Virus record (IMG/VR): IMGVR_UViG_3300035698_018616 | Reading direction: 5' to 3' (one strand) | Source: a virus | Length of the DNA stretch: 64,000 bases | Part shown: positions 9,098-58,453 of the stretch, piece after piece | Layout of the letters: each line of letters starts with the position of its first letter | Position numbering within the stretch: the first letter of the stretch is position 1 | Made by a program: the position numbers and the translations under genes | Notes under the pieces: model-generated | Told to the model about the DNA's origin: nothing | Databases searched by the model: none | What the model saw: the letters and a program-made list of their open reading frames with translations, nothing else

Positions 9098-9891
9098 ACC
9101 TCTATTCTTAATTGTTCATACCTGCATCCATCTTTTTGATGCACTTTCTTATGGCAAGTATAACATAAAGTAATGCAATTGTCAATATCAGCAGACTCTA
9201 ATGGATTGGTACTTACTGGATAGATATGGTGGCAATGGAGAGTACCGGTAGAACCACACTTAACACATTGATATCCATCCCTTTTCAATACTAATTTTTT
9301 TAATTCTGGTTGAACTTCTCTATCCAATTTCAACCATTCTAATCTTCCTGCTCTTATTGCATCTTCTCTCATTAATTGTTCAGGTGATTTACCATATATA
9401 GAACAGGAATATCTACATTCATCAGAACAATAAAAACGAGATTCATAATTATAATTACCTTTGAGATATTGAGACCTATTATTGGCATTATAATCTTTTG
9501 GTATAAACCATTTATTACATTTAAAACACCTTACTTCTAATATATTCTTATCTTTTGGACTTCTTCTTACCTCTTCACACCATTCTATCTGAGAGGCATA
9601 AGTATCATAAAGAGGTATATGTTTTTTCCATAATTCACCTTTCCAATTACTATTTTTTTCACCTTTTTGGTTCTTTGATTTTTTTAATTTTCTTTCTTTT
9701 GTATTATATCCTTTACCAGCACAAATTTTAGAACAATAATAACCTACTTTATTACTTACTTGTGCTAAAAATGGTTCCCCACAAATTTCACATTTCTCTT
9801 TGTAAATATAATATACATATCTCTTATCATGCCATTTACCGGTCTTTTTATTATATTTTAACCCTTCTAAATTATCCCAGCATATTTTCAT
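9091..9891 (-). CDS. HNH homing endonuclease
   Basis: C-terminal RDGYQCVKCG..LHCHHI...NCITLCYTCHKKVH. Confidence 0.9.
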   Translation of the reverse strand: MKICWDNLEGLKYNKKTGKWHDKRYVYYIYKEKCEICGEPFLAQVSNKVGYYCSKICAGKGYNTKERKLKKSKNQKGEKNSNWKGELWKKHIPLYDTYASQIEWCEEVRRSPKDKNILEVRCFKCNKWFIPKDYNANNRSQYLKGNYNYESRFYCSDECRYSCSIYGKSPEQLMREDAIRAGRLEWLKLDREVQPELKKLVLKRDGYQCVKCGSTGTLHCHHIYPVSTNPLESADIDNCITLCYTCHKKVHQKDGCRYEQLRIEVC

Positions 9892-23439: not shown

Positions 23440-23809
23440 TGGTGGATCTGCTCGGAGTCGAACCGAGGTCTTGACTGTATCCATTACTAACTGAGTTACA
23501 TTCATCATAAAGTTTGTGTAAATCAATGAACCCAAACTTTATAAACTGTTCATTGACCGTGTTACAATGCCTTTGTTATACACCGTTTAACACGAAAAGA
23601 TGTATAACGTATCCTGTTTAGTCTACGCCTCTTTCATACGTCCAGGAAACATATGAAGAAACGGCAAAGCCTTTAAGCGGCCATTGCATATTCGTAATTA
23701 TAATCATCTGCAATTACTTTAAGTTTCCAAACCTTTTAAGGTGTTGATTAGAATTTTCACCGAATGCAGTTGTAACAAACAAACAACCAATCGAAGCCAT
23801 TTCAGACCC
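23440..23809 (-). ncRNA. ssrA: tmRNA; tag peptide ADDYNYEYAMAA*
   Basis: 5' GGGTCTG pairs with 3' CAGATCC-ACCA with a G3.U wobble (Ala identity); GCTTCGA D-loop-like segment; T-arm CTCGG-TTCGACT-CCGAG; tag ORF 23711..23673 ending in AA-stop. Confidence 0.95.
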
Positions 23810-55397: not shown

Positions 55398-55924
55398 ATC
55401 ACTTTCTCCTTTTTGTTTAAATTTAAGAGCTGAAACAAACCCTATCATGTAACAGGGCTTATGTCAACCCTCAAAAAATGAGGGTTTTTGAACTTTACTA
55501 AATGGTAATCATCTCAAAATCTTTCACTCTCAAACGGGTGGATTTCTGAACCAAATTTCCAACGAAACGTCTTGCGGATGTTTTACTAATGAACTTACGA
55601 GCGACCCTATCATTTGCCATTAAGACACGACCCTTTTTAGCCACAACACATTTCATTTTCTTCATATCACATTCTCCTTTTTGTTTAAATTATTCTCTCT
55701 CACAAAGACTGAAACCATTGTATCTCATGAACTCTGAACTGTAAATCAAAAATTAATCATCTTCTTCAATAAGCTCAAAACATTCAGGACATACAGTCCA
55801 CCACTTGGTCTCACCTACATAAGGATCACCATTTCGTTCTGTAAATCCTTCCTCTCCAGTCCATCCACAATTTTTACAAATATATAACATAATCCATCTC
55901 TCCTTTTAATTTCAGGTACTTAAA

Positions 55925-56058
55925 GGGGTTGTAAAGCGGAACCGGGTTTGTCTTCCTCTGGTGGCAATATCAACAGTCCATAGTATCGCAGTGATAAAGG
56001 TACTGGTATTGTCAGTTGGCAAAAGAAAATATAAACAGGTATTCTATTTTACAACCCT
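55925..56058. ncRNA. Structured RNA candidate
   Basis: GGGGTTGTAAA/TTTACAACCCT closing stem in non-coding DNA. Confidence 0.4.
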
Positions 56059-56514
56059 TATAACTATCTGAAATCTTTATGTTTTTGGTTGTGCTGACCG
56101 GTCAGACTTGGAAAAGGTTAATGAATTCAGGGTGTTACAATCCTACACTTCACTCAGCGCTAAGTTTTCTCGGATTGACCCACAGGACATCCATGGGTTT
56201 ATATGTAAACAGTTAAAATTGTTATGTTTTAAGTTGCTCTCTCAACAAACTAAATACATTGTATCACACAGATCAAAAACCGTAAACAGATTTAATTCAA
56301 TTTAAAAATCAGTGACTTACCAGACAAAAAACTTCAACATCAACTACGTCAATGGTACCATATATTTGAGGCTATGTAAACAGAAAAAATAATAGCTCTG
56401 GAGACCCTGACTACCACTGCATGGGAGACAGGGATACCCTCTGAGAGCGTGTAGGATTGACGTGGAGGGGTGTTCCAGACATGACTAAGGGGGTAGTATG
56501 GCTTGGGGGTGGCA

Positions 56515-56852
56515 TCCCACCTCGTTGATCTGAGGGCTCAATAATTTCAGGCGCTTACAGTGAATGGGATTCATTGTATACTGTATACTGTATACAGCTG
56601 TCTAAACGCCTGATTCCATTATGAGTCTACGGGTGGTACAGATAGACCTGGAGAGCGTCCAGGATCAAGGTGGATAGACGATCTAGAGTGAGCGTGATGG
56701 ATAGTGTGTCCTGGGACGCCGTCCCACCTCGTTGATCTGAGGGCTCAATGATTTCAAGCGCTTAGGGTGTAGGAAAATCCAACGGTGTATACGGTGTACT
56801 GTATACAGTATACAATCATGTAATTTCAGGCGCTTACAATGAATGTGATTCA
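56515..56852. repeat. Direct repeats of the divergence zone (43-bp x2; 31-bp x2; TGTATAC iterons)
   Basis: 56515-56557 vs 56722-56764 (2 mismatches); 56543-56573 vs 56822-56852; (tgtatac)3 at 56575. Confidence 0.9.
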
Positions 56853-56865
56853 GTCATTTTTTCTC

Positions 56866-56894
56866 TTGACATTGTTGGTGACCTGTGTTATACT
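56866..56894 (+). promoter_or_regulatory. Sigma70 promoter TTGACA-17-TATACT (TG-extended)
   Basis: Consensus match. Confidence 0.85.
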
Positions 56895-57239
56895 AAGAGT
56901 ATCAAATGGTTAAGGATTTTCAAGTGTCTGAAATCATTTGGGAAAAAATTTAATTTACAAGATGTGATGTGTGTGGTACAATGTTTTTAACTCGTTGAGA
57001 GAGTAACTAACAAACATAACCCTTTGAATTTATATGACTTCTGGGTGTTCCAGAAGGGACTGGTGAAAAAGCGAGTGCACCGCTGGAGTAGCTGTCTAAT
57101 CGTCTGAATTTATTAATCTTATCCAAGTCTTTCCGGAAAGCGAAATTAGAAATTGACAAAGGAGGAGATGATATGATATATGTAAGTTTTTGAGTGTAAG
57201 ATGTTTTCAGATCTCGTCTGCCATGTGTAGAAGGAGTTG

Positions 57240-57265
57240 GGCTGATATTAGGTATCAGCCTTTTT
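57240..57265 (+). terminator. Intrinsic terminator
   Basis: GGCTGATA/TATCAGCC + T5. Confidence 0.8.
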
Positions 57266-57270
57266 AAAAA

Positions 57271-57299
57271 TTGACAAAGGAAATTGAATGATGTGAAAT
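57271..57299 (+). promoter_or_regulatory. Promoter (TTGACAAAGG type) for tRNA-His
   Basis: TTGACA-17-TGAAAT; near-identical to the 57485 copy. Confidence 0.7.
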
Positions 57300-57305
57300 G
57301 GTTAT

Positions 57306-57381
57306 GTCACCTGTAGCTTAATGGTTAGAGCCTGCGGCTGTGACCCGCAAGATGAGAGTTCGATCCTCTCTGGGTGACCCA
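57306..57381 (+). tRNA. tRNA-His(GTG), second copy
   Basis: G-1:C73, TGCGG-CTGTGAC-CCGCA, CCA. Confidence 0.88.
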
Positions 57382-57393
57382 AAAAATGAATAT

Positions 57394-57464
57394 AGAGGTG
57401 TAGTGTTAAGTGGCTAACACGCAACACGCTTGAATTGCCGGTTCGAATCCGGTCGTCTCTGCCA
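57394..57464 (+). ncRNA. tRNA-like RNA lacking a proper anticodon arm
   Basis: AGAGGTG/CGTCTCT-GCCA, D arm GTGTT/AACAC, T arm GCCGG-TTCGAAT-CCGGT; only 16 nt between D and T arms. Confidence 0.7.
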
Positions 57465-57484
57465 GTAAATTTAAGAATTAGAAA

Positions 57485-57513
57485 TTGACAAAGGAAATTG
57501 AATGATGTAAGAT
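57485..57513 (+). promoter_or_regulatory. Promoter TTGACA-17-TAAGAT
   Basis: Consensus match. Confidence 0.78.
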
Positions 57514-57526
57514 GTTTTTAAGGTTT

Positions 57527-57690
57527 AACTCTCGGCCATCAATTCCCAAGCAGTCGGTAGGGTCTGTTTCTTGGAGTAAAAGTTGCTCTGGCCGGGTTTT
57601 TGTAGAGAGGTTCGTTTCTTGGTGTACAATAATATCTATCGTTTTCGGTGCGTCCCTAAACGGGTTCCCTTAGTCGCCAAGCTCTCCACA
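57527..57690 (+). ncRNA. Two-domain structured RNA candidate
   Basis: CTCGGCCA/TGGCCGGG and TGTAGAGAG/CTCTCCACA stems directly after a promoter. Confidence 0.5.
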
Positions 57691-57703
57691 CAAAAATTGT
57701 CTC

Positions 57704-57872
57704 TCAATCCTTTATTTGAGGTATGATACTGTAAACTATCACTGTATTATACATCACAGGATGAAAAAACAACACGGAGGTCCTATACTAGTCACGGACT
57801 AACGGGTGAAACCTGGTACTGTCACTGATAAATATGGTCCCTGAGAGTATCATACTTCAAATAAGAGATTGA
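57704..57872 (+). ncRNA. Structured RNA candidate with ~28-bp closing stem
   Basis: TTATTTGAGGTATGATACT/AGTATCATACTTCAAATAA plus extension. Confidence 0.6.
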
Positions 57873-57877
57873 CGAAT

Positions 57878-57987
57878 ACGGCGGCTCTTTAGGAAAGGAG
57901 AATTGTTTATGAAATATTATTGGAAGTGGCCATTACTAATAATAGGAAATATCCATACTGGAGGTTCGAATCCTCCTCCGCTGTCCA
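57878..57987 (+). ncRNA. tRNA-like shell enclosing an RBS and a small ORF (57909..57992)
   Basis: ACGGCGG/CCGCTGT-CCA, T arm GGAGG-TTCGAAT-CCTCC; internal AGGAAAGGAG + ATG. Confidence 0.55.
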
Positions 57988-57996
57988 AATAAGAGA

Positions 57997-58025
57997 TTGA
58001 CAAAGGGGATTTTTTGATGTAGTAT
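57997..58025 (+). promoter_or_regulatory. Promoter TTGACA-17-TAGTAT
   Basis: Consensus match. Confidence 0.78.
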
Positions 58026-58032
58026 GTTTATA

Positions 58033-58141
58033 GATGATGTGATGTAGGGGGATAATAATGCATCTACTTGGCCTACGGGCCGGCGATAAAGCATTCTACG
58101 TAGAATGCTGATACCCTGTCGGGGCAGAACCGACCATCATC
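58033..58141 (+). ncRNA. Structured small RNA candidate
   Basis: GATGATG/CATCATC closing stem stacked on GTCGG-7nt-CCGAC; GGCC-TACG-GGCC; AGCATTCTA-CG-TAGAATGCT; starts ~7 nt after the -10 box. Confidence 0.6.
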
Positions 58142-58186
58142 TTTACAATATTAACCTTTTTGAAATGTTTATAAGAGGAGATTTAG

Positions 58187-58453
58187 ATGGCATATAATAA
58201 AGGTCTTGACAAAGTACTGTATGAGGCGAATATCCACAGTGAGGATGGGACCATTTTGAAGGTTTCTGTTTACTCCTACAATGGTGGAGACAATAAGTTA
58301 CAGATTGGACCTAGAACCTACACCAAGAAAAACGGTGAAGAAGGGTTCAGGAAGGCTGGAAGAATTAGTGAAGGGGAAGTTGAGAAGCTGGTTGACATCC
58401 TACCCGCTATAAGTTCTTACCTGAGTGGGGGCCAATTGACAGTTAGAGGTTAA
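58187..58453 (+). CDS. PC4/YdbC-like ssDNA-binding protein
   Basis: LKVSVYSYNGGDNKLQI...FRKAGRISEGEVEKL. Confidence 0.7.
   Translation: MAYNKGLDKVLYEANIHSEDGTILKVSVYSYNGGDNKLQIGPRTYTKKNGEEGFRKAGRISEGEVEKLVDILPAISSYLSGGQLTVRG

Follow-up and report, generated by a model that had tools for sequence, protein, structure and literature searches.

The locus described here lies in a window of 64,000 nucleotides (the whole stretch of DNA analysed), which is part of the genome of a large uncultured salt-lake phage distantly related to T4. The phage encodes RtcB, an RNA ligase, an NAD ligase, a ribonucleotide reductase and a clamp loader, the last of these having T4-type phages as its top matches at about 35% identity. 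The tRNA complement of the window comprises 27 tRNA genes and one tmRNA on the minus strand (ARAGORN, Rfam). Base-for-base identical phage was found in at least 24 salt-lake runs and contigs, no RNA run being listed among those that contain the region, and a blastn comparison of a 2.2-kb region with INPHARED (50,697 phage records) returned no match.

The element of interest sits in a 2.3-kb zone without credible genes (about 55900-58186), in which transcription changes from the minus to the plus strand. No recognizable mobility gene, be it for a transposase, an integrase or a reverse transcriptase, is found in this zone or among the neighbouring frames. At 56082-57152, the strand-switch zone is bracketed by palindromic iterons and by long, imperfect inverted repeats, one of 60 nt with 77% complementarity and one of 49 nt with 76%. 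Sigma-70-type promoters at 57146, 57264, 57478 and 57990 form a family with about 20-40 nt in common around the -35 hexamer. Each is preceded by some structure, be it a hairpin, a terminator or a tRNA-like arm, and no one conserved stem-loop is found before all of them. Downstream of P57146 comes a unit about 100 nt long, closed by an intrinsic terminator (57240-57265). The features needed in what follows are:

23440-23809, minus strand: tmRNA, the sole tmRNA match obtained with Rfam
57485-57513, plus strand: promoter P57478, a member of the family, with -35 and -10 hexamers 17 bases apart and 10 of 12 consensus matches
57702-57875, plus strand: structured RNA (inverted repeat I3, z-score -4.9) with a closing helix of about 28 bp, the 3' strand of which holds copy 1 of the 16-mer
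57858-57873, plus strand: 16-mer copy 1, the -35-like hexamer of which lacks a -10 at a distance of 16-18 bp; the one 16-mer of the relatives is its orthologue
57874-57878, plus strand: linker of 5 nt from copy 1 to the acceptor 5' strand; a similar 5-mer follows the single 16-mer of the relative L004
57879-57885, plus strand: acceptor-like 5' strand, positions 1-7 in standard geometry, to which A57878 can add a -1:73 pair
57885-57900, plus strand: 6-bp hairpin of the minimum-energy folds, its 3' strand being a ribosome-binding-like purine run
57909-57992, plus strand: frame of 27 codons running through the T arm and the CCA, with its TAA (57990-57992) inside 16-mer copy 2
57915-57944, plus strand: predicted A/U-rich hairpin of 9+3 bp
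57945-57954, plus strand: mini hairpin of 3 bp, then a 5-nt linker, a layout matching the part before the T arm in the armless tRNA at 57394-57461
57960-57976, plus strand: T arm (5-bp stem, universal T loop), whose 11-mer motif occurs elsewhere in the window only in tRNA-type genes
57977-57987, plus strand: acceptor 3' strand (57977-57983), position 73 (57984) and CCA (57985-57987), read directly from the sequence
57986-58001, plus strand: 16-mer copy 2, the upstream and -35 part of P57990, assigned through membership of the promoter family
57997-58025, plus strand: promoter P57990 (-35, 17-nt spacer, -10), which drives a leader and an 88-aa gene (58187-58453)

The element itself is a tRNA-shaped, non-decoding sequence of 110 bases between two identical copies of a promoter element. 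The 16-mers, the acceptor-like stem, the T arm, the CCA, the ribosome-binding-like site and the frame listed in a preliminary description of this DNA all proved to be correctly placed. The acceptor pairing proposed there joins 57878-57884 to 57978-57984 by seven pairs, one of them G-U, and leaves 57977 without a partner. Placed in standard tRNA geometry, the acceptor consists of 57879-57884 opposite 57978-57983, with a C/T mismatch at 7:66 and T57984 as position 73; it then counts six pairs plus the 7:66 mismatch, or seven pairs if -1:73 is included. The G-U pair (57880/57982) corresponds to 2:71 in this geometry; it would be at 3:70, where tmRNA has its G3-U70 alanine identity pair, only with A57878 as position 1, in which case no position 73 is left. 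This 7-bp closure starts 5 nt past the repeat and ends at the CCA. The T arm had been called perfect and is so, and the CCA is encoded at the exact spacing of a tRNA, as an encoded CCA is in nearly all tRNA genes of the phage. The acceptor stem, the T arm with its universal loop, and the correctly spaced position 73 and CCA are the canonical tRNA traits present in the element. The 3' part (T arm, 7-nt strand, one base and CCA) is unmistakably of tRNA origin. Global alignments with the phage's own tRNA genes revealed no convincing parent, the nearest acceptor strands being those of tRNA-Gln(ttg), identical at 5 of 7 positions.

A usable D arm and a 5-bp anticodon stem with a 7-nt loop are absent, and the minimum-energy fold contains other hairpins. 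No canonical tRNA was called on the element by ARAGORN at default settings, and the Rfam tRNA model RF00005 gave no match at its gathering threshold (29 bits) and none at E values up to 10 in a 1.1-kb search. The element was likewise not called as a tmRNA, either in the tmRNA mode of ARAGORN at a 70% threshold or with Rfam RF00023. Complementarity to the acceptor 3' strand arises by chance in random 100-nt stretches of this contig, at a rate of 5% for seven pairs and 8.5% for a run of six pairs, and the fold z-score of the element (-1.6 to -1.8) is not exceptional. The shell formed by acceptor and T arm is still obtained when the element is co-folded with the upstream RNA.

A second truncated tRNA lies nearby, at 57394-57461. 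It has acceptor, D and T arms and a CCA, a stub of 3 bp and 5 nt replacing the anticodon arm; it scores 34.6 bits with the Rfam tRNA model and ARAGORN is silent on it. The element resembles this armless tRNA in its acceptor stem, T arm and encoded CCA, in the 3-bp mini hairpin and 5-nt linker before the T arm, in its inability to decode, in adjoining a promoter of the family and in being missing from both near relatives. The loop region of the A/U-rich hairpin (57915-57944) also has a GG-containing 7-mer in common with the D loop of the armless tRNA. The two differ in that the armless tRNA has a normal D arm and its Rfam score, whereas the element has neither, and in that the element carries about 30 extra nucleotides with a start-site look-alike after the acceptor strand.

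The 16-mer was described as present twice, and exact copies do occur at 57858-57873 and 57986-58001 only, four near-matches in the window having three mismatches each. The preliminary description had also allowed that the repeat might simply be a duplicated promoter -35 context. This is what was found, the 16-mer belonging to a promoter family of four to five members. Copy 2 is part of P57990; in the relatives L053/L052, a core homologous to that of P57990 comes immediately after the one 16-mer. Copy 1 serves at the same time as the 3' strand of the closing helix of the structured RNA (57702-57875), and it is separated from the tRNA-like part by a 5-nt gap. L004 and L053 preserve the closing helix, in which one pair has changed in a compensatory way and another between G-U and A-U; the structured RNA matches no Rfam family. 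Its 3' strand also provides, in the relatives, the -35 of the promoter of the 88-aa gene. The stretch just upstream of it (57527-57690) is 93-98% conserved.

Relatives were reached as diverged contigs through homologues of the downstream 88-aa gene; in IMG/VR, this gene has no relatives. A comparison with relatives had been proposed as a check for an empty site with a single 16-mer, and such sites exist in two sets of contigs, L004/L005 and L053/L052. In L004/L005, the flanks are 93% identical, and one 16-mer is followed by the similar 5-mer and a P57146-like promoter core; no tRNA-like element is present. In L053/L052 the empty site is clean, with one 16-mer directly before the core homologous to that of P57990, and the window equals L053 plus 128 bp (linker, tRNA-like part and second 16-mer). 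The element is hence missing from two of three lineages. Since these relatives carry one 16-mer and no element, the element can be regarded as a cassette, gained or lost, that is bounded by the repeats. Across the upstream RNA, the window differs from L053 at 6 of 339 positions and from L004 at 20. In the 88-aa gene, 30 differences separate the window from L053 and 50 from L004, the two relatives differing from each other by 22. Upstream of the 16-mer the window therefore groups with L053, whereas the 88-aa gene sets the window apart from L004 and L053, which there group with each other; the lineages are mosaic, or recombinant. Because the divergence pattern switches across the promoter, the promoter at the 16-mer is taken as a recombination joint. 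In more distant relatives (L006-L016), the upstream regions are unrelated, though the promoter motifs are similar.

Neighbouring modules, too, are gained or lost at promoters of the family among the same relatives. Neither L004 nor L053 has the armless tRNA and P57478. L053 has the sRNA-terminator module at 57164-57263, which is missing in L004, where a hybrid promoter remains, and the leader upstream of the 88-aa gene (58027-58150) is present in L004 and missing in L053/L052. This leader contains a terminator-like hairpin at 58118-58134 and an ATG at 58058 whose start score (6.04) is like that of a gene and which begins a frame of 17 codons; judging from these sequence features, it could be a leader-peptide attenuator.

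A strong ribosome-binding site and a 27-codon frame had been reported inside the element. Both are there: from the end of a purine run it is 8 nt to the ATG at 57909, which begins an open frame of 27 codons. The start site scores 4.31, near the median of real genes (5.06), and just 0.26% of antisense ATGs score as high; a start site of this strength followed by at least 27 open codons occurs once per 56 kb of antisense strand. Of the 49 ATGs within 55901-58186, however, 8 reach scores typical of real starts, and the top ones are located in promoter cores, where they begin frames of 1-6 codons. Since the best-scoring ATGs of the zone fall in promoter cores, the core sequence of the family appears to mimic a start site. 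The interior of the element (57894-57918) resembles three of five promoter cores at p 0.07-0.12 and the other two at p 0.28-0.38, similarities that are not significant. In all folds the purine run forms part of a hairpin stem. The peptide owes its C-terminal third to translation of the universal T arm, and the stop codon lies 3 nt past the CCA. An RNA matured at the CCA would be stop-less, because the stop codon is beyond it. The frame is absent from the nearest relatives (L004/L005 and L053/L052), and tblastn against phages detected no homologue of the peptide. Most likely, the ribosome-binding-like site and ATG are a look-alike of a promoter core and not a working start; the chance that the frame is translated is put at roughly one in seven. 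In the more distant relative L013 (L013:100-300), a called 55-aa gene precedes the 88-aa gene. The start of this 55-aa gene uses a motif near-identical to the start site of the element, directly after a -35 motif of the family type, so that a single motif seems able to act either as the spacer of a promoter or as a ribosome-binding site.

Searches for further copies were carried out at several levels. A second copy of the element was not found in the window. Blastn of the element against the 50,697 phage records gave T-arm fragments only (E of at least 0.3), without a T4 match among those listed. Scans of IMG/VR with a 28-mer and a 21-mer from the T arm and acceptor gave no match, and the 16-mer matched there 17 times, by chance and in unrelated sequences. 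A metagenome scan with the 16-mer and its context recovered L004 again and otherwise unrelated contigs. All recovered copies of the element are identical, and contigs of four runs are identical across the region, with no recombination joints. A pattern combining purine run, ATG and T loop matched 16 times in IMG/VR, approximately the number expected by chance as estimated by hand without a shuffle control. These 16 matches are ordinary tRNAs, tRNA 3' fragments or unrelated frames, and a recurrent class of such elements was rejected. On an unrelated IMG/VR viral contig (L067, 143,941 bp), a long tRNA-like gene was noticed on the minus strand near 9136-9220; a 7-bp acceptor closure and a T arm enclose an interior of about 100 nt, and ARAGORN is silent on it.

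The reading preferred here, with a probability of about one half, is that the element is an optional, lineage-specific tRNA-shaped cassette that is swapped by recombination at repeated promoters, transcribed by read-through and probably processed. Recombination at the repeated promoter parts would insert, delete or swap the modules between the repeats, as in the PeSL cassettes discussed below. The cargo would be a tRNA-derived, non-decoding sequence in which an acceptor-like stem and a T arm are combined with an encoded CCA. With no promoter of its own, the element would be transcribed by read-through from P57478, the closest promoter on its upstream side and the probable origin of any transcript covering it. 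Such a transcript would start near 57520 and carry the element as its final unit, after two structured RNAs; no terminator-like site was seen on the plus strand from P57478 to 58118. RNase P and the tRNA 3'-end enzymes recognize a stacked acceptor/T-arm helix with a 3' CCA. As both the stack and the CCA are kept, RNase P and the enzymes that trim tRNA 3' ends would probably release the element as a stable RNA some 109 nt long. Cleavage by RNase P would also part the upstream RNAs from the downstream message.

The preliminary description suggested that the 16-bp repeats resemble a target-site duplication and that the element might be a tiny mobile cassette. The idea of an optional module bounded by promoters stands, given the empty sites in relatives; that of a transposon does not, the element being single-copy and unaccompanied by a mobility gene. 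It is highly improbable that the element is an autonomous or RNA-mediated mobile unit, MITE-like or retro-inserted as a tRNA-like sequence with a 16-bp target-site duplication. The exact direct repeats on both sides, the clean empty site in L053 and an acceptor stem reminiscent of short terminal inverted repeats would all suit such a unit. However, only one copy was found, no transposase, integrase or reverse transcriptase is located nearby, the left repeat does not abut the unit, and neighbouring modules were gained or lost in the same promoter-bounded fashion. The repeat is, moreover, pre-existing promoter and RNA-helix sequence. A target-site duplication is further disfavored by the divergence switch, which fits homologous recombination. 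Transposition is not indicated, because the element is single, no mobility gene is close and the repeat already served two roles at the site: the direct repeats are promoter copies and not transposon footprints. A decoding tRNA with a short intron (anticodon ATG, an insert of 25 nt after position 37, splicing through the phage RtcB) is hardly credible. ARAGORN does draw a cloverleaf on 57879-57987 when introns are allowed and the threshold is set to 80%, and the phage encodes RtcB and an RNA ligase. Yet the cloverleaf appears only below the default threshold and has a D stem of three weak pairs, the 7:66 mismatch and an oversized variable region; its anticodon stem competes with a much stronger hairpin, the Rfam tRNA model finds nothing even at E up to 10, and no splicing endonuclease was seen. 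A histidine anticodon with A34 is not known from bacteria.

A possible but doubtful explanation is that the element is an inert relic, a tRNA 3' fragment left beside a promoter by past recombination, in which case the 5' complement and the hairpins would be fortuitous and neither a functional RNA nor a peptide would be made. The rejection by all tRNA and tmRNA models, a 5' complement to be expected by chance in 5-8.5% of cases, the unremarkable fold z-score and an interior weakly like promoter cores (p 0.07-0.38) are compatible with such decay, as are the absence of the element from both near relatives and of homologues in the IMG/VR scans and phage blastn. Against a relic stand the flawless T arm and the CCA at the exact tRNA spacing, the 7-bp closure that starts 5 nt past the repeat and ends at the CCA, and the layout before the T arm that mirrors the neighbouring armless tRNA. 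The preliminary description proposed a dual-function RNA, and in a wider form of this proposal the 27-codon frame would be translated, either on its own or competing with folding and processing of the tRNA-like kind, as a promoter-flanked ORFan of the PeSL kind. This is unlikely. The near-median start score and its rarity among antisense ATGs, the single occurrence of such a site and frame per 56 kb, and the near-identical motif that starts the called 55-aa gene of L013 speak for translation; against it, equally good ATGs are common in the promoter zone (8 of 49, most of them within promoter cores and opening just 1-6 codons), every fold hides the purine run in a hairpin, one third of the peptide is translated T arm, CCA maturation would remove the stop codon, and the frame has no homologue and is absent in relatives. 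Very unlikely, too, is a truly bifunctional RNA, tRNA-shaped and with a working start, which would switch between folding and processing on the one hand and translation on the other; after trimming at the CCA, it would be a stop-less mini-message stalling ribosomes and leading to trans-translation, perhaps by the phage tmRNA. The preferred reading is thus of a dispensable, lineage-specific tRNA-shaped cassette.

The promoter-bounded arrangement recalls the promoter-early stem-loop motifs (PeSLs), through which modules are shuffled among T4-type phages (Arbiol et al. 2010, PMC2839356; Comeau et al. 2014, PMC4122927). RB49 has an ORFan between two PeSLs, phage phi1 has a single PeSL at the same place, and crossovers fall inside the motif (PMC2839356). 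The locus described here is similar in several respects: repeated sigma-70-type promoter motifs are clustered in a variable region, two copies of the motif flank a small cargo where a relative without cargo has a single copy, crossovers map to the promoter motif, and the host phage belongs to the T4 superfamily. It differs in its cargo, which is a tRNA-shaped sequence and not an ORFan as in the published cases, and in its repeat, which is exact over just 16 bp and has no identified G-rich/C-rich terminator stem-loop. For excised mini-circles with one motif plus the cargo, a further trait of PeSL cassettes, the analysis covered assembled contigs, and no joints were seen in these.

The tRNA-shaped cargo itself can be compared with species 1 RNA of T4 (rnaC), the function of which is still unknown (PMC9697503). 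The T4 record (NC_000866, 70908-71046) was read and folded beside the element. Both would be small RNA genes adjoining tRNA genes, stable in the case of rnaC, and in both a canonical T arm lies directly 5' of a 3' strand that pairs with the 5' end, enclosing a non-tRNA interior of about 100 nt. Beyond the T loop, however, rnaC has no sequence similarity to the element; it is 139 nt long with a far more stable fold (z-score -4.6 versus -1.6 for the element), lacks an encoded CCA in the record, and is conserved and expressed, whereas the element is a putative RNA. A tmRNA also has 5' and 3' ends that form an acceptor/T-arm shell around a short ORF. In contrast to the element, the frame of a tmRNA has no ribosome-binding site or start codon, and the molecule contains pseudoknots and measures about 370 nt. 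By analogy with these systems, the element is best placed as joining two known kinds, shuffling of the PeSL type and tRNA-like stable RNAs as in T4, with RNA as the putative cargo.

If this reading is true, promoter-mediated modular shuffling, described in coliphage-type T4 relatives, would extend beyond ORFans. It would also move small RNA genes, non-decoding tRNA-shaped RNAs included, in a salt-lake phage very distant within the T4 superfamily. The element would then provide another example of the unexplained tRNA look-alikes of phages, among which T4 species 1 RNA is still without an assigned function after fifty years. Overall, the locus illustrates that exact direct repeats around a small phage element can be copies of a promoter and not footprints of transposition.
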